Assembly (NCBI GenBank): GCA_027067855.1
Contig: JAMOUX010000011.1
Span: forward strand, 12,528-76,527
DNA length: 64,000 bases
Source of the DNA: Candidatus Fermentibacteraceae bacterium
Lineage (GTDB): Bacteria > Fermentibacterota > Fermentibacteria > Fermentibacterales > JCC-6
Direction of reading: 5' to 3'
The position numbers and the translations under genes were made by a program. Position 1 is the first letter of the stretch. The number at the start of each line of letters is the position of its first letter. Of this stretch, positions 26,265 to 64,000 are shown one piece after another. The notes under the pieces were generated by a model that was given only the letters and a program-made list of their open reading frames with translations, was not told the DNA's origin and made no database searches.

Positions 26265-26363
26265 CCCCGGAAGCTCTTCCAGGATACCTCCCGTTCGTTT
26301 ACGATTGCAACTTGCTTCCCCGCCATTTATATCATTCCCCGATTACAATGGAAAGCCGGTAAC

Positions 26364-27914: not shown

Positions 27915-27924
27915 AACCGGGCGG

Positions 27925-36314: not shown

Positions 36315-37523
36315 CTACTTGCCGCCAACGGTACTGATAAGATCGAATATCGGGAGGTACATCGCTATGACGATGCCTCCGACTATTCCTCCCAGCAACA
36401 CGATCATTATGGGTTCCAGGGTCGCGGTCAGGCCCGCCACGGCGGTGTCCACCTCTTCCTCGTAGAAGTCGGCTATCTTCTCGAGCATGGTGTCTATTCC
36501 GCCGGTCTCCTCGCCCACCGCAATCATCTGGGTCACCATTCCGGGAAATACTCCCGATTCCTTCAGCGGGTCGGATATGTTCTCGCCGCCGGAAATGCTG
36601 GCTCGGGCCTGCATTATCGCATCGGCCACAACCCGGTTACCGGCGGTCTTGGCCGTGATGGCCAGGCCGTCGAGTATGGGAACTCCACTGGAGACCAGGG
36701 TGCCCAGGGTCCTGGTGAACCTGGCTATGGACATCTTTCTTATCAGTATGCCGAAGATGGGCATCTTGAGTTTTATGGTGTCTATGACCTTCTGGCCGTT
36801 ATTCGTCTTGTAGTAAAGCTTGTAAGCGACGGCAAGGCCGATGAAGCCCAGGATGATGAGGAGGATGTTGTGCTGGACGAACTCCGAAAGGTTCACCACG
36901 AACTGGGTGGGTCCGGGGAGGGAGCTGCCCATATCGACGAACATCTGCTGGAATATGGGAATTACGAAGAGAAGCAGGGCCATAACCACCAGCACCACCA
37001 CTATGAGCACCACCATGGGATACATCATGGCCGATTTTATCTTGCCGCGCAGGGCCACCGACTTCTCCAGGTGGTTGGAGAGCCTGTTGAGTATCGTGTC
37101 CAGGATACCTCCCTGCTCTCCCGCCGCCACCATGTTGGTGTACAGTTCGCTGAAAACGTTGCTGTGCCTGGCCAGGCCGTCGGCCAGGGTGCCTCCTTTC
37201 TCGACGTACTCGGTCACGTCTTCTATGATGTTGGCGAATATCTTGTTGGTCTGCTGCTCACTGAGAATCTGGAGACATTTCACCAGGGGAAGACCGGCGT
37301 TGATCATCACCGCGAATTGCCTGGTGAACGTGGCCAGTTCCTTATCCTTAACGCCGGAGCCTATCACTCCGAACGTGGCTATGTCGAAACCGCCCTTTAT
37401 CTTGGTTACGTTGACGCCCCTCTGCCTCAGCAGCTCCTCCGCCTCGGATTTCTTAGCGGCCTTTATCTTGCCGGACATCTTCCTTCCGGCTTTGTTCGTT
37501 CCTTCCCATCTGAACTCAGGCAT
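36315..37523 (-). CDS. pilC: Type IV pilus platform protein PilC (GspF family)
   Basis: Two T2SSF repeats (FTRQFAVMINAGLPLVKCL...; FTRTLGTLVSSGVPILDGL...) and 3 TM segments. Confidence 0.9.
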   Translation of the reverse strand: MPEFRWEGTNKAGRKMSGKIKAAKKSEAEELLRQRGVNVTKIKGGFDIATFGVIGSGVKDKELATFTRQFAVMINAGLPLVKCLQILSEQQTNKIFANIIEDVTEYVEKGGTLADGLARHSNVFSELYTNMVAAGEQGGILDTILNRLSNHLEKSVALRGKIKSAMMYPMVVLIVVVLVVMALLLFVIPIFQQMFVDMGSSLPGPTQFVVNLSEFVQHNILLIILGFIGLAVAYKLYYKTNNGQKVIDTIKLKMPIFGILIRKMSIARFTRTLGTLVSSGVPILDGLAITAKTAGNRVVADAIMQARASISGGENISDPLKESGVFPGMVTQMIAVGEETGGIDTMLEKIADFYEEEVDTAVAGLTATLEPIMIVLLGGIVGGIVIAMYLPIFDLISTVGGK

Positions 37524-37538
37524 AGCCGCCTCCCATGT

Positions 37539-38609
37539 TTATAGAACGTCTCTTCCCGTTGCTATCATCTGTTCCAGTTCATCAACGTTGTGCGACCTCT
37601 CCAGGGCCATTTCCATGGTTATCACGTTCTTCTTGTAAAGGTTGAACAGGGCCTGGTTCATGGTGCGCATACCGTGCTTGTACCCCGCCTGCATGATGCC
37701 GTATATCTGGTGCAGCTTGTCCTGCCTTATGGTGGACCTCACCGCGGGGTTGCACACCAGTACCTCGGCCGCCAGCGCCCTTCCCGTTCCCCTGGCCTTC
37801 GGCACCAGCTGCTGGGTCATAACGCCGATGAGGACGAACGAAAGCTGGCTTCGCACCTGGACCTGCTGCTCCGAAGGGAACGAGTCGATTATCCTGTTTA
37901 TCGATTCGTAAGTCGAGTTGGTGTGGAGTGTCGCCATCGTCAGGTGACCGGTTTCGGCGATGTTCAGCGCCACCTGCATGGTCTCCCTGTCCCTCATCTC
38001 GCCGATGAGGACCACGTCGGGGTCCTGCCTGAGAACGTATCTCAGGGAATTGGCGAAGGACTTGGTGTCGGAACCCACTTCCCTCTGGTTGATTATGCCC
38101 TTGTCGTGGTGATGCACGTACTCTATGGGATCCTCTATCGTGATTATGTGACAGCGCCTTGTGGAGTTGACCTTCCTTATTATGGAGGCCAGAGTCGTGG
38201 ATTTACCGCAACCGGTGGGGCCCGTCACCAGTATCAGGCCCTGCCTCTTATCCGCGAACTCGTTCACCGCCTTGGGAAGCCCGAGTTCGTCGAAAGACAG
38301 TATCTCGTGAGGGATGGCCCTTATAGCGCAGGCGATGCAGCTTCTCTGGAGGAATACGTTGGACCTGAACCTGGAAAGCCCCCTGACGCTGAAAGCGAAG
38401 TCAAGTTCCTTCTCCAGTTCGAACCGCTTCTTCTGTTCGTCTTTCAGGAGGCTGTAAACAAGGTTCTGAGTATCCTGCGGAGTAAGGGGATCATACTCCA
38501 TCCTGACCAGTTCACCATCGATACGAATCACCGGAGGAGCACCGACCGTGATGTGAAGGTCGGTGGCCCTTCGTTCCATCATCTCCTTGAGCAACGTCTT
38601 GATAATCAT
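37539..38609 (-). CDS. pilT: Type IV pilus retraction ATPase PilT
   Basis: GPTGCGKSTT Walker A, LIGEMRD Walker B and TGHLTMATLHTNS His box. Positioned pilB-pilT-pilC. Confidence 0.9.
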   Translation of the reverse strand: MIIKTLLKEMMERRATDLHITVGAPPVIRIDGELVRMEYDPLTPQDTQNLVYSLLKDEQKKRFELEKELDFAFSVRGLSRFRSNVFLQRSCIACAIRAIPHEILSFDELGLPKAVNEFADKRQGLILVTGPTGCGKSTTLASIIRKVNSTRRCHIITIEDPIEYVHHHDKGIINQREVGSDTKSFANSLRYVLRQDPDVVLIGEMRDRETMQVALNIAETGHLTMATLHTNSTYESINRIIDSFPSEQQVQVRSQLSFVLIGVMTQQLVPKARGTGRALAAEVLVCNPAVRSTIRQDKLHQIYGIMQAGYKHGMRTMNQALFNLYKKNVITMEMALERSHNVDELEQMIATGRDVL

Positions 38610-40415
38610 CTAGGCAGAGTGTCCTTCCCCGGTGTTCCGACCCGAAGACGAAGTCTTCATCCTCTCCAAGACCTCCTTGACCTCGGGGTCGTCCTCGGCG
38701 GTAACCCTCGTCACCTCTTCGAGAGTGGTTATACCGCTCTTCATTTTTTCGACCGCATCCATACGTAACGTGCGCATACCACCCTTAACGCCGAGAACCC
38801 TGAGTTGCCCGGCGGTGGCCTTGTCTATTATCGCCTGTTTTATAACTTTGTCGATGGCCAATACCTCGTAAAGACCTATTCTTCCCCTGTATCCCGACCC
38901 ATTGCAGTTCCTGCAACCTTCCCCCCTATACGTTGTATATCCAGCCATCTCGGCGGGGTCAATACCGGCGGCCAGGTATTCCTCGTCGCTGTACTCGTAA
39001 GGTTTCGCACATTTCTTGCAGATCTTCCTCACCAGTCTCTGGGCCATTATCGCCCTCACGGCCGAGGCCACCAGGAACGGCTTTATACCTATGTCCACCA
39101 ACCTGTTGACAGTACTTGGAGCATCGTTGGTATGTATCGTGGAAAAAACCAGGTGACCGGTAAGGGCCGCCTTTATGGCGATGCTGGCCGTCTCAAGGTC
39201 TCTTATTTCGCCCACCATGATGATGTTGGGATCCTGCCTGAGTATGGCCCGCAGCGCGGAAGCGAAATCGTATCCCATGCTGAAATCTATCTGTGTCTGG
39301 GTCAAACCCTCTATGTTGTATTCGACGGGTTCCTCGGCGGTATGGATGTTGCGCTCCGGGGTGTTCAGCGAACTCAGCGCCGAATACAGGGTAGTGGTCT
39401 TGCCGCTGCCCGTGGGGCCGGTGACCAGCACGATCCCGTAAGGCGAGTTCACTCCCTGCATGAACCTGCCGAGGGCGTCTTCGGGAAATCCCAGCTCCCG
39501 CAGGTCGAACTCCAGGCTTCCCTTGTCCAGAATCCTGAGGACTATCTTCTCCCCGTTGACCGTGGGCACGGCGCTGACCCGGAAGTCTATGGATCTGCCG
39601 TCTATAGTGGCCTTTATCCTTCCGTCCTGCGTCTTCCTCTTCTCGGCTATATTCATACCCGCCAAAATCTTGAAGCGGCTGATTATCTGGGGCTGCACCC
39701 TCTTGGGAAGCCTTCTCACCTCGAAACACTTACCGTCCCTCCTGTACCTGATACGGAGGAACTTCTCGTACGGTTCTATGTGTATGTCGCTGATTTCGGT
39801 TCTGACGGCCTGGGCTATCACCGAGTACACGAACCTCACTATGGGCCCCGACGAGAGATCGGCGTACTCGTCATCGAAATCGTCTACTTCCTCTTCTTCC
39901 TCCTGTATCTCCAGGCTCTCGACGACCTCGAGTTCGTCCTGATCCTCGTCGTAGTCATCTATAGTGTCCTTGACCGAAACCAGGGCGTCCTGCCTGCCGT
40001 AAAGGTCGTTCTGCGCTCTCCGGACCGCCGACGGAGCCGAGGCGTAGACCACCACCTCCTTGCCCACGGCGAACTTCACTTCATCCACGGCGTAAAGGTC
40101 ACCCGGAGAACCCATGGCCACGTGTATGTAATCCTGCTCCGACTTGAACGGAACCAGGAGGAATCTCCTCGCCACTTCCCCGTCCAACTCGTTCTCCAGG
40201 GAAAGATCCAGCTTCATTTCGTTGAGATAGACCGGTTTGACCGAATATATCTCGGCGAGAAATTCGGTTATGAGATCTTCCGGCACCAACCCGGCCAGAA
40301 CCAGCTGGTCAGCCAGTTCTATCTCCCCCGGTCCGTATTCCGCGGCTATCCTGTCTATGTCGTCCTGGGTCACCATTCCGGATTCCAGGAGCATCATGGC
40401 CAGCCTGCTCAGCAT
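38610..40415 (-). CDS. pilB: GspE/PilB-family secretion ATPase with N-terminal T2SSE_N domain (PilB paralog 1)
   Basis: T2SSE_N (MLSRLAMMLLESGMVTQDDIDRIAAEY...), acidic linker, Walker A GPTGSGKTTT, and the tetracysteine Zn motif (CKKCAKP...CRNCNGSGY). Start taken at MLSRL with GGAGG RBS. The 127-aa R/Q/G/H-rich N-terminal extension of track ORF 38610..40796 was rejected. Confidence 0.85.
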   Translation of the reverse strand: MLSRLAMMLLESGMVTQDDIDRIAAEYGPGEIELADQLVLAGLVPEDLITEFLAEIYSVKPVYLNEMKLDLSLENELDGEVARRFLLVPFKSEQDYIHVAMGSPGDLYAVDEVKFAVGKEVVVYASAPSAVRRAQNDLYGRQDALVSVKDTIDDYDEDQDELEVVESLEIQEEEEEVDDFDDEYADLSSGPIVRFVYSVIAQAVRTEISDIHIEPYEKFLRIRYRRDGKCFEVRRLPKRVQPQIISRFKILAGMNIAEKRKTQDGRIKATIDGRSIDFRVSAVPTVNGEKIVLRILDKGSLEFDLRELGFPEDALGRFMQGVNSPYGIVLVTGPTGSGKTTTLYSALSSLNTPERNIHTAEEPVEYNIEGLTQTQIDFSMGYDFASALRAILRQDPNIIMVGEIRDLETASIAIKAALTGHLVFSTIHTNDAPSTVNRLVDIGIKPFLVASAVRAIMAQRLVRKICKKCAKPYEYSDEEYLAAGIDPAEMAGYTTYRGEGCRNCNGSGYRGRIGLYEVLAIDKVIKQAIIDKATAGQLRVLGVKGGMRTLRMDAVEKMKSGITTLEEVTRVTAEDDPEVKEVLERMKTSSSGRNTGEGHSA

Positions 40416-40426
40416 CCGTGCCTCCG

Positions 40427-42202
40427 TCACTCGTTGGCTATTGTCTCTTTGATCACCTCGTCGAAGGTGGTGAGACCCGCTTCGAGTTTCCTTATCGCCG
40501 CTTCCCTGAGGTTTACCATCCCCTTGGCCAAGGCTGCCTTTTCGATGTCTATGCTGTTGGCATCGCTCTCTATGAGCTTCCTTATATCCTCGTCTATCGC
40601 CATGATCTCGAAGATGCCCACCCTGCCTTTGTAACCGGTGTTGTTGCAGTACGAACATCCCGTCCCGGTGTAAAGCTCGACCCCTTTGAACCTGGCCGGA
40701 TCCATTCCCGCCTCTTCGAAGGCGCTGTCCGGTATGCTCACCGGAACCTTGCATCTGGAACATATCCTCCTGATCAGCCTCTGGGAAGCTATGCACACCA
40801 GGGACGTGCTCAACATGAACGGCTCGGTGCCGATGTCGATGAGCCTGTTAATAGTGCTTGGGGCATCGTTGGTATGGGTGGTGGAAAGCACCAGGTGACC
40901 GGTGAGGGCCGCCCTGATCGCTATTTCGCTGGTCTCCTTGTCCCTTATCTCTCCCACCATGATGATGTCGGGATCCTGCCGGAGGTAAGCCCGCAGGGCG
41001 TTGGCGAAAGTCAGCCCGACTTCCTCGTTCATCTGGACCTGGTTGATTCCCTTCAGGTTGAACTCGACGGGGTTCTCCGCGGTCATAATGTTGACTCCCA
41101 CGTCGTTGAGTTCGGTCAGGGCCGAGTACAGGGTGGTCGTCTTGCCGCACCCGGTGGGCCCGGTCACCAGCACAATGCCGAAGGGCCGTCTTATGGCCTT
41201 CCTGAAAACCTTGAGGGGTTCTTCCTCGAAGCCCAGCTTGTCCAGGTCGAGTATCACGGCGGAACGGTCCAGCAGACGGACCTCCACCTTCTCGCCGAAC
41301 AGGGTGGGCAGCGTCGCCAGCCTGAGATCCACGAACCTGTCTCCCACAAGTATCTTCTGCCTGCCGTCCTGGGGCAGGTTGTGTTCGGCTATATTCATAC
41401 CGCCCAATATCTTCAGTCGGCTGACCATCGCCGACCGGTACTTCCTGCTGGGCCTCATGACCTCGTGCAGGACGCCGTCTATCCGGAATCTCACCCTTAC
41501 GTATTTTTCGAACGGCTCGAAATGAATGTCGCTGGCTCCCCTCCTGACGGCATCGGCTATCAGGCTGTTGACCAGCTTCACCACGGGCGAGTCGGCAACC
41601 TCGAAGTTCAGGTCCTCTTCCTCGAGACCTTCCTCGTCGTCCTCTTCGACGACCATGGACTCGAAGACCTCGTCGCCCACCAGCAGGTTCTCCTCTTCGG
41701 AGATGCCCTGTATGCCGTCTTCCCCCTGGGCGCCGACCCCGTTTCTCTTCGACTCCTCCACGGGAACGATGGCTTCCGCTTCCTTGTAATACTTGCTCAG
41801 GGCCTTATTCATCATGCTGGACGCACAGACTCTGGGTTCTATGTCCATGCCGAGGGAAAACCTCAGGTCGTCTATGGCGAAAAGGTTGTTGGGGTCCACC
41901 ATGGCCACCACCAGCTTCCTGCCCTCCCGCCTTATGGGAATGACCTGGTATCTTTTCGCCACCTCGGCGCTCAACAGGGATATCGTGTCCGGATCTATTT
42001 CCATTTCATCCACGTTGACGCTATCGACGCTCTGCTGCCTGGCCAGGAACTTGTTCAGGGCATCCTCGGTTATGGCATTTATCTGAACAAGGTGGTACCC
42101 GATCCTGTTTCCTTCCTTCTTCTGCCTGTTCAGCGCTTCGTCGAGCTGCTTATTGGTTATGATGCCGGAATTAAGCAGGAGCTGACCCAGTCTTATGTTC
42201 AT
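40427..42202 (-). CDS. pilB: GspE/PilB-family type IV pilus assembly ATPase (PilB paralog 2)
   Basis: T2SSE_N (MNIRLGQLLLNSGIITNKQLDEAL...), acidic linker (VVEEDDEEGLEEED), Walker A GPTGCGKTTT and Zn motif CSRCKVP...CSYCNNTGY. Confidence 0.85.
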   Translation of the reverse strand: MNIRLGQLLLNSGIITNKQLDEALNRQKKEGNRIGYHLVQINAITEDALNKFLARQQSVDSVNVDEMEIDPDTISLLSAEVAKRYQVIPIRREGRKLVVAMVDPNNLFAIDDLRFSLGMDIEPRVCASSMMNKALSKYYKEAEAIVPVEESKRNGVGAQGEDGIQGISEEENLLVGDEVFESMVVEEDDEEGLEEEDLNFEVADSPVVKLVNSLIADAVRRGASDIHFEPFEKYVRVRFRIDGVLHEVMRPSRKYRSAMVSRLKILGGMNIAEHNLPQDGRQKILVGDRFVDLRLATLPTLFGEKVEVRLLDRSAVILDLDKLGFEEEPLKVFRKAIRRPFGIVLVTGPTGCGKTTTLYSALTELNDVGVNIMTAENPVEFNLKGINQVQMNEEVGLTFANALRAYLRQDPDIIMVGEIRDKETSEIAIRAALTGHLVLSTTHTNDAPSTINRLIDIGTEPFMLSTSLVCIASQRLIRRICSRCKVPVSIPDSAFEEAGMDPARFKGVELYTGTGCSYCNNTGYKGRVGIFEIMAIDEDIRKLIESDANSIDIEKAALAKGMVNLREAAIRKLEAGLTTFDEVIKETIANE

Positions 42203-42361
42203 TGAGCCTCCAAGCGAATGCGACGAAAAATCATGTTAGTATATATGATTTTCGTACCATGTAAAATTCTAGGTCAAGGATCAAGGGAACACGCTCCCCG
42301 ATTTTTTCAATCATTTAGACATGAGCATATAAAAAAAAGGCGGCTTGGCAAGGTTCGGCAA

Positions 42362-45300
42362 CTAGAAATTTATCATAACCCAGACGTTCAGACCGACGTC
42401 ACGCTGGTCGTAGAGGGAATTCACGCCGTCCTTTTTCCATCCGTATATGCCCGTCAACCCGGCTGTTACCGTGCCGAAATCGTAGTTGAGGGCCGGTTCC
42501 AGGCGCCATTCCTCCCTATCCGACTGCAATTGACCGTCCCGGTAGGCTCCGAAGAGTTCCGCCACCGTCCTGTTCCTGGTAATGCTGAGACTGGTCGTGA
42601 GATCGCTCCGGAAACTTATGCGCAGCCGGTTCAGTATGGGAAGGGGAATCGCTATGCCTCCCGGAGCGCTGAAAGCGTACTGGACCTTCAGCTGTAAACT
42701 GTTGCTCCGGCTCTCGGTCCTCGTCCGGGTACCGGTGAAACTCTGCATCTCCGTCTTGCCCAGGTTGTTGCTGACCGAAATCCGGACGTCGTTGTAAAGA
42801 GTGACATTCAGGTTGAAGAGGGGATTCCAATCGGTCTTACCGGTTTCCGTGGTGGGAGTGTATTCGCCTTCCTCATACCTTCCGCTCTCGATATTCTCGA
42901 AACTGTAACCCACGCCGGCGGACCCCGTCCTGAACAACTTATCCAATCCCGCCAGGCGGCTGAGGCCGGATATCGTAACGGAAATCGACGGCCAGGTCCT
43001 GCTCCTGGTATCGTTCCAGAAAGAAGAGTAGAGACTCCTGTTGTCCGAGGATTTGTATTCCATCCTGACCGACATGCTGGAAACGGGTCTGAATCCTCCG
43101 GAAATCTGCAGGTCCCATCCCTTGTTCCGACCCCATGGAATCCCGTCGTCCAGGGTGGGATCCAGTCCGAACCGGTACCTCCAGCGGGGGATGAAGGTCA
43201 TGTCACGGTACTCGCTCCCCTCGGTCTCGGAGTAGGAGATCACCGGATCGTTTATCATGTTGGCCCAGCGTTCCAGTCTCACGAGGAACCACCGCGGGCT
43301 GCCCGGCTCGGCATCCTCGTCCAGCCTCTCGTCCCTCAGCCTCGCCAGGCTCCGTATGGTATGCACCAGGCCTATTCTCAGGTTGAACCTGCGGGACACC
43401 GTCACCGAAAATTCCGGGAGCCCCAGGGAATCCGTTCCGGAACCGGTATGGGGAGCCAGCCTGGACTGGCCGTACCTGGCGTCGAAAGACACTCTCGGAA
43501 GCAGGTAACCGAAAAGATTCACCTCCTGGGAAAGGCTCACCACCTGGTTCCGGGAGATCTCCCGGCCTATTTGCAGACCCATCCCGTTTTTCCACGGGTA
43601 GAACAGGTCCCTCACCAGCCCCAGGGAACCGCTCGCATTGAAACCCTTCCAGGGATTGAAGGACAGTGACGCGCCCGAAGAGAGGGTCCGGGATACGAGC
43701 GCCCTCGTCTGCACGGTGTCGCCGTCGGCCAGGTTCCATCTCGTATCCCAGGTGTTGCGCCTGCCCAGGGACCAGGAGACCGACGTAGGTCTCAGTCGGA
43801 AGAACTCCAGGACGGGGAGCCTGAACAGCTCCATGCGTCTCAGGTTAAGGGTATACGAAAGCGACCCGTCCGCTGTGCTGCTGGTATCCATGTACATGGG
43901 ACTGCCGCCCCGATTCGCGGCATAGAGATAAGTGAACCTGAAGGGATCGACGAAATACCTGGCGGGCCATCGTTCCGAGGATCCGTCCTTTCTCAGTTGG
44001 AAACCCGTGCTCCAGCCGGTATCCCGGGTCTGCTGAAGCGCGGACTCGTTTTCCGGGAGCCTGACGTCGGAACCCGACTGGAATACCGGCCTGGAGACGC
44101 GCATATTCCACGAGTAGCTCAATGGAGCGTATACGCCCCACAAAGGCGGGGTGAAGCGGTCCAGCCTCACGGTGGTACCGGTACTGTACTCCGTGGAAGT
44201 ATATCCCTGCCCCGCCTTCTTTCCGAGACCGTGAAATTCCGAATCCATGCTCCTGTAGTCACCCTCGATGGAAGCGAAATCCGCCAGGTCCAGGGCGGCC
44301 GACACCCTGTGCGCCGCGCCCCTGCCGCCCAGCGGCCGTCTCAGGACTATGTCGTCGATCCACACCACGGCGTCCAGGGAAGCCGCGGAAGTATTGCGCA
44401 ATCCCAGGCCCAGTTGCATCACCGACGCCATGTTGGGGTTGCCCATCACCACCAGATCGCCTTCCCTCAGGTAATCGAGCCCCTCCCGATCCTTCCGGAC
44501 CTTCAGCCGCACCAGGGCGTCCAGATCCACGGTCACTTCTTTCCATCCTTTTTCGATGGGAGTGGATACCTCGTAATAGTTCAGGCTGTCGGTTCCCATA
44601 CGGTAGAATATTTCCCCCCGGACGTCGGCGTCGCCGTGAACCAGGTATGCCAGTTCACCGTAACCGGTGTAGTCCCCGGGGTTATAGAAGTTCTGCACGG
44701 CTATGCCTAAATGACCGCCGCGAATGTTTTCCGCCGCCAGCAGGACGGACTGTTCCAGCCTCGGTTCGCCGAATTCGTCCTTGCCGGGGTCCACCCCGGG
44801 GGGAGGATCGTTCTTGTACTCGGGGTTGTTCCTGTTATCCACGGTGGAGACCGTGAAAAGTTCCGAGGGAAGCACCGGGATGCCCACCGGTTCCGCCAAC
44901 CTCACTCCGCCGGGTTCCCACCTGTTACCCACCACCTGCAGGTCGTAGACCTCCACCGTGTCTCCCCTGGTGAAACCCGTCATCCAGATCCTCGCGTAAC
45001 TCACCTTCTCCCACGTCGGAGCGCCGTGAACGATGGAAGGTACGCTCACCAGTGCGGTGTCGTTCAGGGGTATCTCCAACAGCATCCACCCGTACTCGTT
45101 GGGACCGGTGACCACGTATTCGGGGTCGTCCAGGGGAACCTTTATCCTGAAGAATGAATTGGACCGGTCCAGAACCCCGTTCCTGTTCAAATCCTCGGTG
45201 TCCAGGTTTCCGTTCCTCTCGGTACCGTTGAGGAGGTGGTATTGTTCGGGATCGGAAGGATAGTCGTCTCCGTCGGGATCGGGATTACTCACGGGGTCGT

Positions 45301-47962
45301 AGCCCGGCTCGTCTTCGCTGAACATGCCGTCGAGCCCGGTATCCTCGTCGCCGGAAAGCTCCCCGTCGTTGTTGAGGTCTTCAGTGTCCAGTTCCCCGTT
45401 GGCCCTGAGGACGATCCGTCCCGCCGTCCTCTCCGGCCAGTAGGAATCCTCGTCCATCCTCTCCCCCAGGTCCAGGTACAGGTTTCCGTTCAGCGCCGCG
45501 CCCGTGGCTCTCACGTAGAGACGTACGTGGGTCTTGTCGGTGAAATCGAGCCCGTACTTGTCGATGCACCTCTGCACTCCGCCCCAGGAGAATATTCCGG
45601 CCGCATCGTCAGGCTCGAAATACAACGTCAGGGTATTGTTCACCCAGTCGTCGGACTCCTGTTCCGTGGCGTAGGGTATTATCTGGCCCTGACGCCACTT
45701 CCTGTACGGGTTGAACCAGTTAACCGTTCCCGGCCGGCTCGTCGCAGGAAGCACGTCCATGGGAAGACCCGGACGGTGCCACGACGCCCTGGACTGTCCC
45801 AGCGGGAAGGATATCTCCGTACCCTCCATGTCATCCACGTAGGCCCTGCCCAGTTTGTTCGGCTCCGGGAAGCTGAAGGCCATCTCGCCCGACACCATGG
45901 CCCTGCTTCGGGATTCCGTGGTTATTCCCGGGATAAAGTTCACCGCGTCGGTGAGAAATTCGGGCCTGGCTTCCAGTCTCGCGTCCATGTCCGCCACGAA
46001 AGTCCTCGTGGATTCCTCGCCCACTTTCGGCCTGTCGCCGGGAGTGCTGGCGTCCTCGAACATGGCGGTGATCCCCACCCACGAACCGGAATCTATGCCG
46101 TACACGGCCCTGGTTCCGAAAAGGGTCTTCCTCTGGGACGCGAACAGCGGCAGGTACTCAAAGGTGACCTTCAGGGTGTTGTCGGGATTCTGAGCCGCCT
46201 GAGCCGCGTCGCCCATGAGGGTAAGGAGACCTATCTCGTAGATGATGGTATAGTCCACATCTCTGACCAGGGTCCTGGTCTGACCGGCCTCCGTCAGAAT
46301 AACCTTCTCGCTGCCCGGTATTATGCCCATCCTGCCCAGGGAATAGGTGGTGGACGCCGCCCTGTAGCTCACCGCTATGAAATACTTGCTGTCCACCGGG
46401 AGCGGGTTGTCATCATGATAAATCGCCGGGTTCCGCACTTTCAGTTTCGGATCGATGAACGGCCTGGTCCGGGGAAACACCAGGAACCCGTTGTCCCAGT
46501 CCACGGCATTCTCCTCGTCGAACAGGTTACCGTCCCCGTTGGTGTCCAGGCCCAGCAACCGGATGAAGGGAACCCCGTCCTGGGTGGGTACCGGGTCTTC
46601 TCCCGATCGTTGAAGGTATATATCGCAGTGAAAGGATTCCCTGACTATGTTGTCGGCTCCCAGGAAGTACCTGTTCCTGAGTTCGTAATTCCATGTAGGA
46701 TACTCTGACAGGGGATTGCTCTCCTTGATGAGTTTCAGGTTCCAGTCACCGCCCCCGGGAGGTATGCTGCCCATGGTATCGCCATGGGCGTTCACGGCCC
46801 ATATCGCCAGCATGTAGTTGTCGTCCACCGGGCTGTTGAAGCGTATAACCCTGGAGGAATCCTCAAGGACAAAGTCCAGATCCTGTCCCGGAAGCAGTTC
46901 GTCCCACCATCCCGTTCCGGTGAGAGAGGTCCCCTCCACGTACCATGCGGCTTCCACCGCCCCGGTCTCCTGGTTGTTGGTGCCGTCCAGGTCGTCCTGG
47001 AAAACCCTTATGGATACCAACGGAACCTGCTGCAAGGTATCCGGCAGTGTTACGAAGAAGTAGTTGTCGGCGGGATAAATATCCAGGATGGTGTCCTCCA
47101 CCATGGTCGCCTGGCCCACGAACTCCGCCGATTCGCTGGACCCGGCTTCCCTGCTTACGATGGTGGTTATCTCGACCGGTCCCACCTGCGCCAGGGCCTT
47201 GGCTCCGAACAGTCCCTTGCTTGGAATACTGTACGAAACGAACTCGGGACCGGTGATGGACAGGCTCACATCCCCCATCTCTATGCTCTGTATGACCTCG
47301 TCCTCGTAACCCTCGTACCTGAGACTCAGGGAACTCTGGGGGCCCACGCTCCTCCGGCTGTCGTGATCCACGTCCACGTGAATCTTCTCACCTATGGTGC
47401 CCTGCAGCTTCACCTGCAGTTCCTGCTCCATCTTAAGGTCGGGGAAAAGAGACCTGCTCTCTCCCTCCGAATGAACGGCATTGGGCCTGTAATGCGTTAT
47501 TCCCGAAAGGGTGATCTTCTGGTGCCCCGTTATGTCCAGCCGCCCGCCCTCTCCTATCGCGCCGGCCAAGGCCGGCGGCATGTCCAGTGGAAGATAAATG
47601 GTGGGGAGCAGGGAAGATCCGTCCCTGGAACTTCTCAGGCAGTTGTCACCGTTTACTTCCCTCCACTTCCGGAGAAGATTCCATTCGACGAACCTTCGGC
47701 GCAGGAAACGCAGGAACCCGGCACGCATGCCGGAAACCGGGTAATCTCCCACGGATATTCTCCAGGCCAGAACGTTATCGCCTACGAAGGGCTCAACCAG
47801 CTTCCAGACGCGGGACGGCGCGACCAGCATCCTGTTCCGGCAGCCGTCGTCCCAGAGGTAGGAGGGAACCGGTTCCGGCAGCCGTATACCGGCCGCTTCC
47901 ACCCCCGGAACCGGGACGAAAACCTGGACGGACAACGCGAGCAGCAGGAAAAAGATTTTCAT
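42362..47962 (-). CDS. Giant (1866 aa) secreted outer-membrane beta-barrel-like protein with Asp-rich Ca-binding-like loops (possibly SprA-like)
   Basis: Signal peptide MKIFFLLLALSVQVFVPVPGVEAAG. DxDxDG-type loops (DTNGDGNLFDEEN; DTEDLNNDGELSGDEDTGLDG; NLDTEDLNRNGVLDRSN). C-terminal third has alternating-hydrophobic beta strands and ends in ...NVWVMINF (C-terminal Phe, OMP signature). The family assignment is uncertain. Confidence 0.45.
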   Translation of the reverse strand: MKIFFLLLALSVQVFVPVPGVEAAGIRLPEPVPSYLWDDGCRNRMLVAPSRVWKLVEPFVGDNVLAWRISVGDYPVSGMRAGFLRFLRRRFVEWNLLRKWREVNGDNCLRSSRDGSSLLPTIYLPLDMPPALAGAIGEGGRLDITGHQKITLSGITHYRPNAVHSEGESRSLFPDLKMEQELQVKLQGTIGEKIHVDVDHDSRRSVGPQSSLSLRYEGYEDEVIQSIEMGDVSLSITGPEFVSYSIPSKGLFGAKALAQVGPVEITTIVSREAGSSESAEFVGQATMVEDTILDIYPADNYFFVTLPDTLQQVPLVSIRVFQDDLDGTNNQETGAVEAAWYVEGTSLTGTGWWDELLPGQDLDFVLEDSSRVIRFNSPVDDNYMLAIWAVNAHGDTMGSIPPGGGDWNLKLIKESNPLSEYPTWNYELRNRYFLGADNIVRESFHCDIYLQRSGEDPVPTQDGVPFIRLLGLDTNGDGNLFDEENAVDWDNGFLVFPRTRPFIDPKLKVRNPAIYHDDNPLPVDSKYFIAVSYRAASTTYSLGRMGIIPGSEKVILTEAGQTRTLVRDVDYTIIYEIGLLTLMGDAAQAAQNPDNTLKVTFEYLPLFASQRKTLFGTRAVYGIDSGSWVGITAMFEDASTPGDRPKVGEESTRTFVADMDARLEARPEFLTDAVNFIPGITTESRSRAMVSGEMAFSFPEPNKLGRAYVDDMEGTEISFPLGQSRASWHRPGLPMDVLPATSRPGTVNWFNPYRKWRQGQIIPYATEQESDDWVNNTLTLYFEPDDAAGIFSWGGVQRCIDKYGLDFTDKTHVRLYVRATGAALNGNLYLDLGERMDEDSYWPERTAGRIVLRANGELDTEDLNNDGELSGDEDTGLDGMFSEDEPGYDPVSNPDPDGDDYPSDPEQYHLLNGTERNGNLDTEDLNRNGVLDRSNSFFRIKVPLDDPEYVVTGPNEYGWMLLEIPLNDTALVSVPSIVHGAPTWEKVSYARIWMTGFTRGDTVEVYDLQVVGNRWEPGGVRLAEPVGIPVLPSELFTVSTVDNRNNPEYKNDPPPGVDPGKDEFGEPRLEQSVLLAAENIRGGHLGIAVQNFYNPGDYTGYGELAYLVHGDADVRGEIFYRMGTDSLNYYEVSTPIEKGWKEVTVDLDALVRLKVRKDREGLDYLREGDLVVMGNPNMASVMQLGLGLRNTSAASLDAVVWIDDIVLRRPLGGRGAAHRVSAALDLADFASIEGDYRSMDSEFHGLGKKAGQGYTSTEYSTGTTVRLDRFTPPLWGVYAPLSYSWNMRVSRPVFQSGSDVRLPENESALQQTRDTGWSTGFQLRKDGSSERWPARYFVDPFRFTYLYAANRGGSPMYMDTSSTADGSLSYTLNLRRMELFRLPVLEFFRLRPTSVSWSLGRRNTWDTRWNLADGDTVQTRALVSRTLSSGASLSFNPWKGFNASGSLGLVRDLFYPWKNGMGLQIGREISRNQVVSLSQEVNLFGYLLPRVSFDARYGQSRLAPHTGSGTDSLGLPEFSVTVSRRFNLRIGLVHTIRSLARLRDERLDEDAEPGSPRWFLVRLERWANMINDPVISYSETEGSEYRDMTFIPRWRYRFGLDPTLDDGIPWGRNKGWDLQISGGFRPVSSMSVRMEYKSSDNRSLYSSFWNDTRSRTWPSISVTISGLSRLAGLDKLFRTGSAGVGYSFENIESGRYEEGEYTPTTETGKTDWNPLFNLNVTLYNDVRISVSNNLGKTEMQSFTGTRTRTESRSNSLQLKVQYAFSAPGGIAIPLPILNRLRISFRSDLTTSLSITRNRTVAELFGAYRDGQLQSDREEWRLEPALNYDFGTVTAGLTGIYGWKKDGVNSLYDQRDVGLNVWVMINF

Positions 47963-48067
47963 ATGCTTATTCTATATTCTCCCGGACCCCGTGGTTCCCA
48001 CCCGGCGGCTGAAACTGAAGTACGCGGCCTGCGCGTTCTTCGGACGGCTTATTATAATGGTGGCTGT

Positions 48068-49441
48068 ATGAAAAAACTCCATGTCTACGTCGTGAAGGAG
48101 TTCATTCCCCCGTTCCTGTTGTCGGCGGGAATCTTCACCTTCGTCATGCTTCTGGACAAGTTGCTGGATCTCCTCGACCTCATAGTGAGCAAAGGGGTTC
48201 CGGTAAGGACCGTGGTCGAGGTCTTCCTGCTCCTGCTGCCGTCCATGGTGGCCGTGGTCGTACCCATGGGAGTACTGGCGGGGGTTCTCATGGCGGTCGG
48301 AAGGCTGGAATCCGACCTGGAAATCACGGCCATGAAGGCTTCGGGCATAAGTATATTCACCCTGGTACTTCCGCTGATGGCGGTTGCGGGCCTGCTGGCG
48401 GGATTGCTGGTCATTTTCAACAACCATGTGCTGCCGGACGCCAACCACATGGCCAAAAACCTCATCCTGGACATAGGATCCATGCACCCTTCGGCCAAGA
48501 TCACCCCGGGCATGTTCATCGACGATATCGAAAACTTCAGAATAATCGTGGAAGACAAGGACGACCTGACCGGCGAGCTGTACCACGTTGTCATACACGA
48601 ACGTATACCCGGCTCCGGAATCAGGACGATAACCGCCGTCAGGGGACGCATGGAGCCCCTGTCCGCCAACAGGTTCAGGCTTCTTCTCTTCCGGGGGCAG
48701 ATGCACGAACCCGACGCGGCGGGCGGCTACAGGAAACTGGATTTCGAAACCTACACCGTGGAAATAAGCAGACCCGAGGAATCCGTTCACAGGGACCGGG
48801 ACAACCGGGGCGACAGGGAACTTTCGGCGGCCCGGATGGCATCCATGGTGGATTCACTGGAAAAAGAGGCGGAGATACTGGGCGACTCCCTGGAACGTTC
48901 GGCCCGAAGCACCATCCTGGCCATCGCGGGAGACACGGTCCTCCCCTCGGGCCGAACCACATTCCTTCCTCCCGACACCGTCGACGCGAGAACCTGGTTC
49001 AACATTTCGAGGAACCACCTGGCCAGGCTGTCGGGCGATCTCAGGAACCTCGCCGACAGAAGGGCGTCGCTGATGCGTAACGCCAGCAGGTTCCGGGTGG
49101 AAATACACAAGAAGTACTCCATACCTTTCGCCTGCCTGGTCTTCGTGCTTCTCGGAGTGCCCCTGGGCCTCTCCACCAGGAAGGGCAACGCCGGCATAGC
49201 CCTGGGGGTCAGCCTCCTGGTGATACTGGTCTACTACATCTTCCTCATCGGCGGAGAGCACCTCGCAGACAGGAGGATCATCCCGCCGTTCCTTTCGATG
49301 TGGCTCCCGAATATCCTCCTCGGCGCCCTGGGGGTGTATCTCACGCTCAGGAGCCTCCACGAAGGCAACCCCGTGCCCGTTCGCAGGATCATCTCCGCCA
49401 TTCGCTCCCTGACCGGCCTTTTCAGGGGAGGATCCCGGTGA
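48068..49441 (+). CDS. lptF: LPS export ABC transporter permease LptF (YjgP/YjgQ family)
   Basis: MKKLHVYVVKEFIPPFLLSAGIFTFVMLL is typical of YjgP/YjgQ, with 6 TM helices and a periplasmic beta-jellyroll insert. It is the 3-prime part of track ORF 46784..49441, whose upstream part is antisense to the giant gene. Confidence 0.8.
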   Translation: MKKLHVYVVKEFIPPFLLSAGIFTFVMLLDKLLDLLDLIVSKGVPVRTVVEVFLLLLPSMVAVVVPMGVLAGVLMAVGRLESDLEITAMKASGISIFTLVLPLMAVAGLLAGLLVIFNNHVLPDANHMAKNLILDIGSMHPSAKITPGMFIDDIENFRIIVEDKDDLTGELYHVVIHERIPGSGIRTITAVRGRMEPLSANRFRLLLFRGQMHEPDAAGGYRKLDFETYTVEISRPEESVHRDRDNRGDRELSAARMASMVDSLEKEAEILGDSLERSARSTILAIAGDTVLPSGRTTFLPPDTVDARTWFNISRNHLARLSGDLRNLADRRASLMRNASRFRVEIHKKYSIPFACLVFVLLGVPLGLSTRKGNAGIALGVSLLVILVYYIFLIGGEHLADRRIIPPFLSMWLPNILLGALGVYLTLRSLHEGNPVPVRRIISAIRSLTGLFRGGSR

Positions 49442-50523
49442 AAAAGCTGGACCTGTACATCACCCTCCGTTTCATCAGGATGATAATCGTCTCCGTAGCC
49501 TCCTTCGTAGTGATCTTCGTCAGCGTCGACGCCTTCGACCATTTTTCCCGCTGGGTGGACAGGGACGTATCCGTGGGAACGTTCGCCAGGTATTACTTCT
49601 ACGGTCTGCCCTACATAGTGGTCCTGGTACTTCCCGTGGCCGTGCTTCTGAGTTCTCTTTTCCTGGTCTCCTCCCTTTCCAGGCACAATGAACTGGTGGC
49701 CATGCGTGCGGCGGGCATCAGCCTCACAAGGATATTCATGCCCCTCTTCGCGGTGGGAGCCCTGACCTCCGTTTTCGAGCTGGCCGTGGGGGATTTCGTC
49801 GTATCCAACGCCACCTACCTGCAATCCCAGGTGAAAAGGGTGGAAATAGACGGCAGGGAACCCGTCGACTACGGAAGAAGAAGCAATTTCGCCCACCGTT
49901 CTCCCGGCGGGGCCATCTTCGAAATCGGGTTTTTCGACGGCCGGGGGGAATACATGACGAACCTGACCGTGGAATGGCTGAACGACAGCGCCGGGGTAAC
50001 CAGGCGGCTCGACATGGACCGGATGGCCTGGAAGGATTCCGCCTGGGTGGGATACGGCGTGACCGAAAGAATCTTCGGACCATCCGGCGCGCTTTCCTAC
50101 GGTTTCCACGACTCGCTGCCCATTCACGGGATAAGGGAAACCCCCCTGGACTTCGGTTCCAGGCAAAAGTCGCCGGAGGAGATGAACTTCCTGGAACTCA
50201 GGAGATACATCGAAAGAGTCAGGCAGGCCGGAGGTGATCCGAGAGGCCTGTTGGTGGAATTCTATCTCAAGTTCTTCTTTCCCCTCTCCAACCTGATAAT
50301 GGTCATGGTGGGCGCTCCCCTCGCCCTGAGGAACCCGAGGAGCGGCAAGGCCACCAGCATCGGCCTCGCCATACTCCTGGCATTCCTCTTCTTCTCCTTG
50401 CTGAGGCTGGGCCAGACGCTCGGTCACAAGGGGGTGCTTCCCCCGCTCCCGGCCGCGGGAGTGGCGGACGCCGTTTTCGCCGCCCTGGGAATCTTCCTCC
50501 TGAGGAGAGCTTCCAAGGCCTGA
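49438..50523 (+). CDS. lptG: LPS export ABC transporter permease LptG (YjgP/YjgQ family)
   Basis: A GTG start overlaps the lptF stop (GGTGA). VKKLDLYITLRFIRMIIVSVASFVVIF is a YjgP/YjgQ signature. Confidence 0.8.
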   Translation: MKKLDLYITLRFIRMIIVSVASFVVIFVSVDAFDHFSRWVDRDVSVGTFARYYFYGLPYIVVLVLPVAVLLSSLFLVSSLSRHNELVAMRAAGISLTRIFMPLFAVGALTSVFELAVGDFVVSNATYLQSQVKRVEIDGREPVDYGRRSNFAHRSPGGAIFEIGFFDGRGEYMTNLTVEWLNDSAGVTRRLDMDRMAWKDSAWVGYGVTERIFGPSGALSYGFHDSLPIHGIRETPLDFGSRQKSPEEMNFLELRRYIERVRQAGGDPRGLLVEFYLKFFFPLSNLIMVMVGAPLALRNPRSGKATSIGLAILLAFLFFSLLRLGQTLGHKGVLPPLPAAGVADAVFAALGIFLLRRASKA

Positions 50524-50626
50524 CTTTCCGGGGATGCTTCCCCACTTGATGGAAACGAACCGGTCCAACCATATTCCAGGGCCGGTTTCAAGAGTGATTA
50601 AACCCGAACCAGAATCGAGGAACAAA

Positions 50627-51726: not shown

Positions 51727-55855
<4,129 letters not shown>

Positions 55856-58068: not shown

Positions 58069-58800
58069 GTGGCGTGCTTGCAAAATTCCGAAAAACGCGT
58101 GAGGTGCCATATGTACTTCTTGCCCGGAAACATAATGCTGGCGGAGCACATCATGAAGGATTACGCCTTCACCGGTTTTTTCGCCATCGCATCGTTTCTT
58201 CTATTCATATTCCTGCATCTTCTGGGATCCAGGCTTTTCGTAATGGCCCGGGAATCGGGGAACGTGGGGCCGAAACTCTTCGTGGGCATAATGCTCTTCC
58301 TCGGCGTGGCCGGAACGGTAATGAGCTGTTTCGTACACAACCGGGAGGCCTCGCTGCTCCTGGGGTTCCTCTCGGGCCTCCTGTTATGGACCGCGATTCT
58401 CGATATCCCCCAACAACTCGGCTGGATATCCCTGGCCGACCGCTGGGTGCCCTTCGCTTTCGTAGGATTGGCCGCCCTTTGGGTGACCGGAATGTTTTTC
58501 TACAGCTATCTTCCTTCCGCCCTCTTCGGTATGACCGGCTATTTCACGGTGGTATGGGGAATCGAACTGGCAAGGTTCAAAATCATATCCAAATGGGGAC
58601 CATCCTCCCCGGCCGCATCCGCCATGATACTGGTCACCGCCGCCGTGGCGGGCGGAGCCCTGGCGCTGGGCACGGTTCACGGCACCATCTTCTCAGGAAT
58701 AATAGGAGGAGTGCTGTTCGCGGTGTCCATCTGGTCCTCCCTGGAAATAATCTGGGAGAGAGGCATGGCACAGAAGCCGTGGAGCGGCTTTAAAAAATGA
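58069..58800 (+). CDS. Hypothetical polytopic membrane protein
   Basis: Five to six hydrophobic helices. The start may be an internal Met (MLAEHIMKDY). Confidence 0.4.
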   Translation: MACLQNSEKRVRCHMYFLPGNIMLAEHIMKDYAFTGFFAIASFLLFIFLHLLGSRLFVMARESGNVGPKLFVGIMLFLGVAGTVMSCFVHNREASLLLGFLSGLLLWTAILDIPQQLGWISLADRWVPFAFVGLAALWVTGMFFYSYLPSALFGMTGYFTVVWGIELARFKIISKWGPSSPAASAMILVTAAVAGGALALGTVHGTIFSGIIGGVLFAVSIWSSLEIIWERGMAQKPWSGFKK

Positions 58801-62105: not shown

Positions 62106-62867
62106 TCAGGTAACGACCCCCCTGGAACTGTTCAGTATGAAATCCGCAAGGTACCCGTCGTCTTCCGGACGGGAGTCGTCCTCCAGGATACGCCTGGCCT
62201 TGTCCGTAACGGTTCCATCGGACCTGAACAGGTACCTGTAGAGCCGCCTTAGGTTTTCCAGGCGCTCACCGGATATGCCTTTCCTGCGCAGGCCCACCGA
62301 GTTGAGAGAGATTACCGCCAGGGGGTTCCCGGCCACCAGTACGAAAGGAGGCACATCCCGGTTCACCCGGAATCCTCCTCCCACCATGGCGTACTTTCCT
62401 ATTCTCACGAATTGGTGTACGGGCACCACTCCCCCGATGGTGACATCATCCTCTATCACCACGTGTCCGGCCATGTTCACGGCGTTCGCAAGGATGACCC
62501 TGTCACCTATCACGCAATCGTGGGCAATGTGGACGTAAGCCATAACCAGGCAGTCCGAACCCACCACGGTGCGCCCCGATTCCACCGTTCCCCTGTTTAT
62601 GTTGGCGAATTCACGTATGACGGTACGATCACCGATGACGAGTTCGGTCCTCTCCCCCTCGTACTTCAGGTCCTGGGGATCCGTCCCCACCACGGCGGAA
62701 GGACCTATGCGGACATCGTTTCCCAGAGTGCAGGGCCCCCGCACAAAGGCATGCGCCCCCACCACCACTCCGCTTCCCATTCGAACCTCCGGGCCTATCA
62801 CGGCGTAAGGTCCCACGGTCACGTCACCGGGAAGTTTCGATTCCACTACAGCGGTGGGATGTATCAT
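62106..62867 (-). CDS. lpxA: Acyl-ACP--UDP-N-acetylglucosamine O-acyltransferase
   Basis: MIHPTAVVESKLPGDVTVGPYAVIGPEVRMG... shows left-handed beta-helix hexapeptide repeats, with a C-terminal helical domain. Start at the internal Met (62867), giving ATGA overlap with lpxC-fabZ. Confidence 0.85.
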   Translation of the reverse strand: MIHPTAVVESKLPGDVTVGPYAVIGPEVRMGSGVVVGAHAFVRGPCTLGNDVRIGPSAVVGTDPQDLKYEGERTELVIGDRTVIREFANINRGTVESGRTVVGSDCLVMAYVHIAHDCVIGDRVILANAVNMAGHVVIEDDVTIGGVVPVHQFVRIGKYAMVGGGFRVNRDVPPFVLVAGNPLAVISLNSVGLRRKGISGERLENLRRLYRYLFRSDGTVTDKARRILEDDSRPEDDGYLADFILNSSRGVVT

Positions 62868-64000
62868 TTTTTCTTCACCAGCATGGCCATGAGCATGGCT
62901 TCCGCCGCCACCTTTCCGTCCACCCTGGCCACTCCCTTCATTTTGCACATGGGCCCCCTCCTCTGAACCATTTCAAGTTCGAAGATCAATTGATCTCCCG
63001 GCCATACCGGGTTCCTGAAGCGCACCTTGTCCAGGCCAGTGAAGTATACCAACCATTCGGAAGGATCGTCGACGGAGTTGAAGAGCATCAGACCCCCGAC
63101 CTGGCCCATCGCCTCGATCACGAGCACCCCGGGCATTATCGGCCTCCCGGGAAAATGTCCCTGGAAAAAGGCCTCATTGATCGAAACGTTCTTCAACCCC
63201 ACTATCCTCTTGTCGGGCTCGACCTCCAGTATCCTGTCCACCAGGAGGAACGGGTACCTGTGGGGCAGCAGGGACATTATGTCGGTCACATCCCACTTCC
63301 CATCCGTCAACAAATCGGTCCCACTCTTCCTGCACGTCCGGTATATCGCCCGGACAAGTTCTATATTGGATGCGTGCCCGGATTTCGCCGAGATGATGTG
63401 CCCTTTCAGCCTGGCGCCCAAGAGGGACAGGTCCCCCAGGAGGTCAAGTATCTTGTGTCTGACGAACTCGTCCGGAAACCTGAGGGGCGTGTCGTTCATG
63501 ATACCGTCGTCGCTCACCACCACCGCGTTGTCCAGTGTTCCCCCCTTTATGAGGTCCTTCTCCTGGAGTTGTTTCACATCTTCATACAGACAAAAGGTCC
63601 TGGCGGGAGCTATCTCGTCCCTGAAAGTCTCCGGGGTAATGTCCAGGGACAGGTACTGGGTTCCCAGTACCGGATGATCGAAATCTATGGTGAAACTCAC
63701 TTTCAGTCCGTCGTAGGGCACGGCGGTGAGGGTGGCTCCGAAAGCTTCCACGTTAACGGGCCTGTCTATGGTAATGACCTTGCAGGGTTTTTCGAGTTCA
63801 ACGACACCGGCTTCTTCCAGCACTTTCAGGTAACTCCGCACCGATCCGTCGCTGGGTTCGGGAGGCTCGTCGGAATCGATCTCGATGATGCAGTTGTCTA
63901 TTTCCAGGCCGTACAACGCCGAGAGTACGTGCTCCACCGTATGAACCTCGTAATAATCGCAACCCAGGGTGGTACGCCTCGACTGTTCCTCAACCTGCCT
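62864..64000 (-). CDS. lpxC-fabZ: Bifunctional UDP-3-O-acyl-GlcNAc deacetylase / 3-hydroxyacyl-ACP dehydratase (LpxC-FabZ fusion), N-terminus beyond the right window edge
   Basis: LpxC region (HTVEHVLSALYGLEIDNCIIE ... HKILDLLGDLSLLG) followed by a FabZ hotdog (RYPFLLVDRILE...HFPGRPIMPGVLVIEAMGQ). The frame is open to the window end. Confidence 0.85.
   Translation of the reverse strand, partial: RQVEEQSRRTTLGCDYYEVHTVEHVLSALYGLEIDNCIIEIDSDEPPEPSDGSVRSYLKVLEEAGVVELEKPCKVITIDRPVNVEAFGATLTAVPYDGLKVSFTIDFDHPVLGTQYLSLDITPETFRDEIAPARTFCLYEDVKQLQEKDLIKGGTLDNAVVVSDDGIMNDTPLRFPDEFVRHKILDLLGDLSLLGARLKGHIISAKSGHASNIELVRAIYRTCRKSGTDLLTDGKWDVTDIMSLLPHRYPFLLVDRILEVEPDKRIVGLKNVSINEAFFQGHFPGRPIMPGVLVIEAMGQVGGLMLFNSVDDPSEWLVYFTGLDKVRFRNPVWPGDQLIFELEMVQRRGPMCKMKGVARVDGKVAAEAMLMAMLVKKK

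Follow-up and report, generated by a model that had tools for sequence, protein, structure and literature searches.

The window analysed here is a stretch of 64,000 nucleotides from a Candidatus Fermentibacteraceae bacterium (GenBank assembly GCA_027067855.1, contig JAMOUX010000011.1). Its largest gene is a minus-strand open reading frame (ORF) of 5,601 nt (42362..47962) that opens with ATG, has 1866 codons and closes with TAG. A type IV pilus gene block comes next on that strand, and two divergent genes for lipopolysaccharide (LPS) export permeases precede the ORF (Table 1). As set out below, this giant gene, referred to as sprA, very probably codes for SprA/Sov, the outer-membrane translocon belonging to a type 9 secretion system (T9SS), in an uncultured member of the Fermentibacterota (Hyd24-12/Aegiribacteria group, Fibrobacteres-Chlorobi-Bacteroidetes (FCB) superphylum).

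By inspection, the N-terminus (MKIFFLLLALSVQVFVPVPGVEA followed by AG) has the n/h/c arrangement typical for a Sec signal peptide, while the C-terminus (...GLNVWVMINF) carries an outer-membrane-type beta-signal, VWVMINF, with Phe as the last residue. This F1866 is kept in at least 90% of the SprA family alignment. Translation and inspection therefore bear out the giant 1866-residue ORF with a signal peptide and a terminal Phe that was reported in the original prediction, which was made from the sequence without database searches.

The family assignment was made with TIGR04189, the NCBIfam equivalog model 'T9SS outer membrane translocon Sov/SprA', which has a curated cutoff of 200 bits. The protein scores 394.1 bits against this model (E 1.3e-117). 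The Pfam domain SprA_N (PF14349) is also matched, its 60 bits lying above the cutoff of 27. When PDB sequences were searched with phmmer, Flavobacterium johnsoniae SprA was the sole match (6H3I, 6H3J and 8GL entries, E ~5e-29), in four segments of the present protein (159-305, 526-732, 871-929 and 1159-1347) that span residues 159-1347 and are collinear with F. johnsoniae SprA. No Pfam or NCBIfam match at E ≤ 1 was obtained for the TamB, LptD, BamA, adhesin-repeat or secretin families, and the Secretin (PF00263) and Secretin_N domains are absent at the same Pfam threshold.

The structure was predicted with AlphaFold as two overlapping halves, residues 1-1200 and 667-1866, each from a 39-sequence alignment. 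The mean predicted local distance difference test score (pLDDT) is 82.8 for the C-terminal half and 74.6 for the N-terminal half. Foldseek comparison with the PDB places the same four SprA chains (8GL8_A, 8GL6_A, 6H3I_A and 6H3J_A) on top for both, with E-values of 6e-56 to 1.5e-47 for the C-terminal half (query TM-score 0.58-0.60) and 1.4e-58 to 5.9e-37 for the N-terminal half. The next-best folds (MtrB, TonB-dependent receptors, SusC and a CBM11-like jelly roll) have E-values of 4e-6 or worse, LptD folds reach 0.05-0.1 against 1e-58 for SprA, and no secretin structure is among the matches listed for either half. According to DSSP, the roughly 670 C-terminal residues form 26 predicted long beta-strands, with about ten further long strands at residues 140-700, or some 36 over the two half-models. 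The original prediction had described a C-terminal region with beta-strand periodicity and given an SprA-like T9SS translocon as its first reading, proposing a comparison with the SprA, LptD and BamA barrels and a strand count; the comparison agrees with that reading, as do the TIGR04189 score and the similarity to 6H3I and 6H3J, and the count from the half-models is compatible with it. Membership of the SprA family is thus clearly supported by both the sequence and the predicted fold.

The protein also contains acidic loops, described earlier as DxDxDG-type and likened to thrombospondin-type-3 (TSP3) repeats and EF-hands. In a motif scan, neither the strict DxDxDG motif nor any TSP3-type motif occurs in the 1866 residues, and the Pfam TSP_3 and EF-hand models give no match at E ≤ 1. 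What holds is a looser form of the claim: loops of the relaxed type [DN]x[DN]x[DN]G start at residues 473, 862, 893 and 924, four in all where shuffled sequences give 0.32 on average (P~0.001). Two of the four match the 12-residue pattern of an EF-hand loop, namely DTNGDGNLFDEE at 473-484 and DLNNDGELSGDE at 862-873. The EF-hand likeness thus stands at the motif level and not at that of a domain model, and the thrombospondin comparison falls away. In the first loop, G471 and D473 are at least 90% conserved in the family alignment. The other three belong to an acidic region (residues 855-935) with two 'LDTEDLNxxGxLD' repeats, which include loop 862-873, and an NPDPDGDD loop. The density of D and E is 27-32% across residues 821-920, compared with 13.6% for the whole protein, and AlphaFold pLDDT is low across residues 855-935. 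E861, D862, G876, D899, E923 and D924 are invariant in 23 out of 23 diverse SprA homologues, and two segments, 'NGxLDTEDxNxDGxLxxxEDTGLDG' as well as 'INGTEGNxRLDTEDLNxDGxLD', rank with the best conserved of the family. Because of this strong conservation and the phmmer alignment with residues 1086-1153 of F. johnsoniae SprA, the loops are regarded as a feature of the SprA family and not as an add-on. They are possibly a trait of extracellular or cap inserts and would be candidate structural metal sites.

A homologue search retrieved 169 homologues at E ≤ 1e-10, including an identical protein from a metagenomic contig of 178 kb. Full-length orthologues of 1845-1903 aa with 50-72% identity number more than 55, the named ones coming from Candidatus Fermentibacteria, Fermentibacteraceae, Aegiribacteria and Sabulitectum; every one of these Fermentibacterota orthologues is labelled 'hypothetical protein' in the records. 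Below 50% there is a sharp step in identity, the next homologues being at about 31% or less, so the Fermentibacterota clade is well separated. Among the homologues with about 25-30% identity, those named as SprA in their records come from metagenome-assembled genomes (MAGs) of Cloacimonadota ('cell surface protein SprA') and Eiseniibacteriota ('T9SS outer membrane translocon Sov/SprA') and from unclassified bacteria. A scan of the GTDB species representatives yielded at least 510 relatives, the closest of which, a MAG and Aegiribacteria MLS_C, have 71-72% identity. The best 80 of these include Fermentibacterota, Gemmatimonadota, Cloacimonadota, TA06, WOR-3, KSB1, Zixibacteria, Latescibacterota, Calditrichota, Ignavibacteria and Bacteroidota, among others. 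The names of the closest homologues, together with an LpxC-FabA/FabZ fusion that is encoded at 62864..63937, as had been noted earlier (LpxC-FabZ), indicate the affiliation of the host with the FCB superphylum. The protein is a further, compact SprA from a phylum in which this family has so far not been discussed, and it is already detected by the existing curated model.

Upstream of sprA, the lptF-like and lptG-like genes are arranged head-to-head with it. Three minus-strand ORFs in this area (47972-48790, 48787-49197 and 49234-50646) were rejected as upstream genes, being spurious ORFs without family matches; the true genes are lptF and lptG on the plus strand. The conservation of this arrangement was surveyed by scoring a divergent lptF-lptG pair at most 2 kb upstream of sprA, with the loci that have enough upstream sequence as the denominator. 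It was found in all six Fermentibacterota species representatives and in 19 of 57 loci outside the phylum, from at least seven named FCB lineages: KSB1 (3/3), Latescibacterota (3/3), Calditrichota (3/6), Bacteroidota MAGs (2/4), Gemmatimonadota (1/2), Eisenbacteria (1/1), Krumholzibacteriia (1/1) and unnamed or unclassified MAGs (5/12). No pairing was seen in Ignavibacteria (0/19) or Cloacimonadota (0/3). Two out of two distant metagenomic loci (L005 and L006; L numbers label the loci compared) have it as well. This frequency is far above chance for single-copy genes, and the conserved neighbour of sprA across phyla is lptFG rather than pilB. A literature search found nothing connecting SprA with LptF.

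The intergenic region between sprA and lptF measures 105 bp in the window and 105-125 bp in Fermentibacterota. It contains a GGGAAC-N18/19-TAGAAT box that ends 6-7 nt ahead of the sprA ATG. In an alignment of six Fermentibacterota intergenic regions, GGGAAC and TA..A are invariant, and the pattern recurs at the equivalent position in eight loci (L001-L004, L007-L009 and L012). In the window it occurs once, with 0.41 occurrences expected. Judged from this pattern, the box is a candidate sprA promoter, and its position would imply a very short or absent mRNA leader. The box is promoter-like, possibly with a -35 element of the extracytoplasmic function (ECF) type; an ECF sigma/anti-sigma pair lies 13 kb off (60115-61622, minus strand). 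It appears that sprA is transcribed from its own promoter within the 105-bp region shared with lptF-lptG. The T9SS pore and LPS export may be co-regulated, which is plausible since T9SS cargo is LPS-anchored. Because the divergent promoter region of sprA and lptF-lptG is shared in at least eight FCB lineages, an ancient functional link between the two is conceivable as well, though this is an improbable reading.

As described for F. johnsoniae, SprA is a 36-strand giant barrel made of a single chain, capped outside and with a lateral opening (PMC10994853). By analogy, the protein of the window would be exported by Sec and then inserted by BAM as a single-chain giant barrel with an outer cap and a lateral opening. 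Cargo with a C-terminal sorting domain would come in from the periplasmic side and, at the lateral opening, associate with a carrier of the PorV type, to be pulled out with proton-motive-force energy from a GldLM/PorLM-type motor (PMC10994853).

Several observations weigh against an SprA that works in this way. The total of about 36 predicted strands is close to the 36 of SprA (PMC10994853), but the strands were counted from halves, so the number is approximate and a closed barrel is presumed. No canonical terminator after sprA was found in the gap ahead of pilB, and read-through into pilB may occur. In a literature search, no report of a T9SS came up for Fermentibacteria, Aegiribacteria or Hyd24-12, and the genome descriptions of Hyd24-12/Fermentibacteria and Aegiribacteria mention type IV pili and not T9SS. 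Based on Pfam and/or NCBIfam scans of essentially all genes, none of GldK/L/M/N, PorV/U/Z/Q or SprE/T, nor any protein with a T9SS C-terminal sorting domain, was detected in the 64-kb window and 7.6 kb past its right end (about 72 kb). T9SS genes are usually dispersed over the genome, and the lack of partners within this distance is therefore a weak negative. A complete T9SS in the host organism is assumed here, the search having covered about 72 kb.

The lack of partners and cargo nevertheless leaves room for an orphan or repurposed SprA, of which the barrel has been kept while the canonical T9SS motor and ring are absent in Fermentibacterota, and which would act, for example, as an export or uptake pore or in envelope biogenesis together with LptFG. 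Such a role would suit the cross-phylum neighbour lptF-lptG and a region rich in bamA-skp-lpxD-lpxC/fabZ-lpxA, bamD and lolA, as well as a protein that lacks about 540 aa relative to the characterised SprA. However, similarly short forms of SprA exist across FCB phyla, the residues invariant in the family are kept and the equivalog cutoff is far exceeded. In addition, the distant locus L005 has a nearby protein with a faint Por_Secre_tail / FlgD_ig tail, and the scatter of T9SS genes means that some 72 kb without them says little. An orphan SprA is thus considered unlikely, and a T9SS translocon is preferred.

The pilus genes downstream had led to the suggestion of a novel outer-membrane conduit linked to the pilus system. 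The observations behind it are accurate: pilB is co-directional and starts 159 bp downstream (predicted as 160 bp), and the gap is strongly AT-rich, with 40.3% GC compared with 59.6% for the window, a value equally low in only 0.35% of 159-bp windows. There is also no secretin nearby, as no Pfam match was obtained among the roughly 55 window genes or in the 7.6 kb past the right end, and none of pilM/N/O/P/Q was found in the 64-kb window. In this scenario, SprA would be co-expressed with the type IV pilus ATPases and would replace or assist the secretin or export pilus-associated proteins. The order in the phylum is fixed as sprA-pilB-pilB-pilT-pilC-pilS-pilR, in a cluster without a secretin. 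The same-strand order from sprA to pilC is complete in all eight distinct Fermentibacterota loci that reach far enough, and a ninth, L007, ends inside pilB; SprA identity among these loci is 50-72%. Together with the missing terminator, this could favour co-expression. However, synteny in these loci extends just as well to unrelated flanking genes, namely a class-V aminotransferase, ligA, a GH57 amylase and the ECF sigma/anti-sigma cluster, so that little about function can be read from the adjacency. Outside the phylum, pilB adjoins sprA in 0 of 76 loci; L026 has a weak 67-bit ATPase match 3.6 kb downstream of its SprA match, and the non-Fermentibacterota loci carry other downstream genes, such as purL or rimP-nusA-infB. 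Moreover, the SprA fold, capped outside and opening laterally (PMC10994853), is ill-suited to a pilus fibre.

The gap itself also argues against co-expression. It contains three sigma-70-like promoters where 0.7 are expected, the best being TTTACA-16-TATACT at 42265..42238, and a T8 run follows the sprA stop. The orthologous Fermentibacterota loci have gaps of 88 to 270 bp, and in L004, L010 and L011 a TTGACA-type box comes directly after the sprA stop. The three lowest-GC spots of the window (28214-28478, 31694-31944 and 42147-42403) each lie directly upstream of a pilus gene (the two pilin genes and pilB). For these reasons, and as far as can be judged from the sequence, the gap most plausibly serves as promoter region for the pilus operon, and the pilus genes are most likely driven by a promoter of their own within it. 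A search of the window for sigma-54 promoters gave no match in the gap and an overall frequency not above chance, with a single well-placed match upstream of a pilin gene. The pilin genes of the window have their own sigma-54-like boxes, which is a further point against a conduit. That sprA adjoins the pilus genes seems to be a chance outcome of gene order in this lineage and does not point to a new pilus channel. With the adjacency confined to the phylum, promoters in the gap and lptFG as the conserved neighbour, a pilus-linked conduit is very improbable.

Finally, a giant envelope protein of another kind, whether TamB/AsmA-like, LptD/BamA-like or a thrombospondin-repeat calcium-binding adhesin, could be imagined from the large size, the acidic Asp/Asn-Gly loops and the neighbouring lptFG, but this identity is refuted by the HMM scans (no Pfam or NCBIfam match to TamB/AsmA, LptD/BamA or adhesin families at E ≤ 1), by phmmer and by Foldseek (LptD fold E 0.05-0.1, SprA 1e-58), the acidic loops being family-invariant and aligned with the matching region of F. 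johnsoniae SprA, and it is hardly credible.

Table 1. Coordinates of the features discussed, in window positions unless a locus label is given
Feature	Position	Strand	Basis
Very probable sprA/sov orthologue, compact T9SS outer-membrane translocon	42362..47962	-	ORF, HMM, phmmer, Foldseek
Putative Sec signal peptide, residues 1-23, MKIFFLLLALSVQVFVPVPGVEA followed by A	47894..47962	-	translation, inspected by eye
EF-hand-like acidic loop 1, residues 473-484 (DTNGDGNLFDEE)	46511..46546	-	motif scan
Acidic loop region, residues 855-935	45158..45400	-	motif scan, D/E density, conservation
Pfam SprA_N match, residues 955-1295	44078..45100	-	Pfam scan
C-terminal run of ~26 long (12-23 residue) predicted beta-strands, residues ~1196-1866; putative main barrel wall	42365..44377	-	DSSP on AlphaFold model
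Candidate sprA promoter, GGGAAC-N18/19-TAGAAT box	47970..47999	-	intergenic alignment
lptF-like LPS-export permease, divergent from sprA	48068..49441	+	Pfam LptF_LptG; TIGR04407 195 bits, below cutoff 230
lptG-like LPS-export permease	49438..50523	+	Pfam LptF_LptG; TIGR04408 215 bits, below cutoff 240
sprA/lptF-lptG pairing	47963-50523; L003-L012, L021, L023, L027, L032, L035-L037, L039, L059, L060		
sprA/lptF-lptG pairing, further loci	L062-L066, L070, L073-L075, L085, L086		
AT-rich sprA-pilB gap, 159 bp	42203..42361	-	40.3% GC
Pilus gene block (genomic context, not part of the translocon)	36315..42202	-	Pfam T2SSE/MshEN/T2SSF
pilB, first copy of the 591- and 601-aa pair (MshEN and T2SSE)	40427..42202	-	Pfam
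Second pilB (MshEN and T2SSE)	38610-40415	-	Pfam
pilT	37539-38609	-	Pfam, gene call
pilC	36315-37523	-	Pfam, gene call
PilS/PilR-like pair after pilC: PAS histidine kinase and sigma-54 response regulator	33241-36286		gene calls
Further PilT-like ATPase, 25 kb away	12318-13427	-	
Two type IV pilin genes	27925-28344 and 31373-31780	both -	
LIC_10190-family proteins	24495-26264 and 29444-31318	- and +	
LA_3751/3752-like putative glycosyltransferase	25737-27914	+	
bamD	13985-14866		
lolA	17698-18300		
Envelope-biogenesis block: lolC/D-like ABC genes, clpB, bamA, skp (OmpH), lpxD, lpxC-fabZ fusion, lpxA	62106-64000 and L087 1-9517		

Some further features of the window were recorded. The pilus block contains two tandem full-length PilB-type ATPases of 591 and 601 aa, both with MshEN and T2SSE domains. 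GGCAT-N5-ATGC boxes of the sigma-54 -24/-12 type precede both pilin genes (31803-31818 and about 28322-28337), which fits the adjoining PilS/PilR-like pair of a kinase and a sigma-54 activator. Across 24495-31318, genes for large polytopic membrane proteins alternate with those for the pilins, and one of them matches PMT_2/DUF8201 in its L004 equivalent; the membrane proteins between the pilin genes may be pilin glycosylation genes. A conserved cluster (55825-61622 on the minus strand and 58021-58800 on the plus strand) encodes an ECF sigma factor, a zf-HC2 anti-sigma factor, a 442-aa protein with a weak DUF6340 match and a 719-aa protein, as well as a 229-259-aa gene on the opposite strand. 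It is syntenic in L003 (1-5971), from a relative at 56% identity. The 719-aa protein has no family match, and neither it nor the 442-aa protein gave a match in a PDB sequence search. A 197-aa ORF (21193-21786, minus strand) fuses an HU-type DNA-binding domain to CBM48 (isoamylase N-terminal), an unusual combination. No Rfam family was matched anywhere in the 64 kb.

With the T9SS translocon as the preferred reading, a function is assigned to the largest gene of the region, which is a 'hypothetical protein' in public Fermentibacterota MAG records, and a type 9 secretion pore is indicated in a phylum whose genome descriptions mention type IV pili only. The idea of a new pilus conduit is set aside by this identification. 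The compact and diverse SprA forms (~1.85 kaa) could help to define a minimal translocon and the motifs best conserved in it, the acidic LDTEDLNxDG loops being an example. Beyond annotation, only two leads arise, the head-to-head synteny of lptFG and sprA and the promoter-like box.

Compared with known systems, the closest characterised relative is SprA of F. johnsoniae (Fjoh_1653; 6H3I, 6H3J, 8GL6 and 8GL8). The two proteins share the family model, the four collinear segments and, as predicted, the fold of both halves, in addition to a Sec signal peptide, a C-terminal Phe, the run of long strands and the acidic region (F. johnsoniae 1086-1153). They come from different phyla, with an identity of about 15-18% in structural alignments, and they differ in length, with 1866 aa here versus 2403 aa. 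Based on the phmmer alignment offsets, about 150 residues are missing relative to F. johnsoniae 295-675, 65 relative to 880-1086, 90 relative to 1153-1461 and 235 in the C-terminal third, so the shortening is spread over several inter-strand inserts and not confined to one end. None of the partner proteins PorV, Plug, PPI, SprE and SkpA was identified in this analysis. Sov of Porphyromonas gingivalis is covered by TIGR04189 too; the likeness is through the shared model only, and the presumed role is that of an export pore for cargo with a C-terminal sorting domain. In P. gingivalis, T9SS cargo is anchored to anionic LPS (A-LPS).

Type IV pili usually have a PilQ/GspD secretin as their outer-membrane channel, and the likeness to the present gene lies in an outer-membrane channel gene adjoining pilus ATPase genes. 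Secretins, however, are multimeric and carry Secretin domains, whereas SprA is a monomeric giant barrel of unrelated fold and family. BamA of this genome is a separate gene just past the right end of the window. The short-form SprA proteins of Cloacimonadota, Eiseniibacteriota, KSB1, Latescibacterota, Calditrichota, Gemmatimonadota and Zixibacteria are of comparable size (~1750-2300 aa, many 1800-2100). They align over ~94-100% of the length at ~25-30% identity, and many have a divergent lptF-lptG pair. Unlike these other short forms, the Fermentibacterota clade alone has the pilB-pilB-pilT-pilC cluster downstream.

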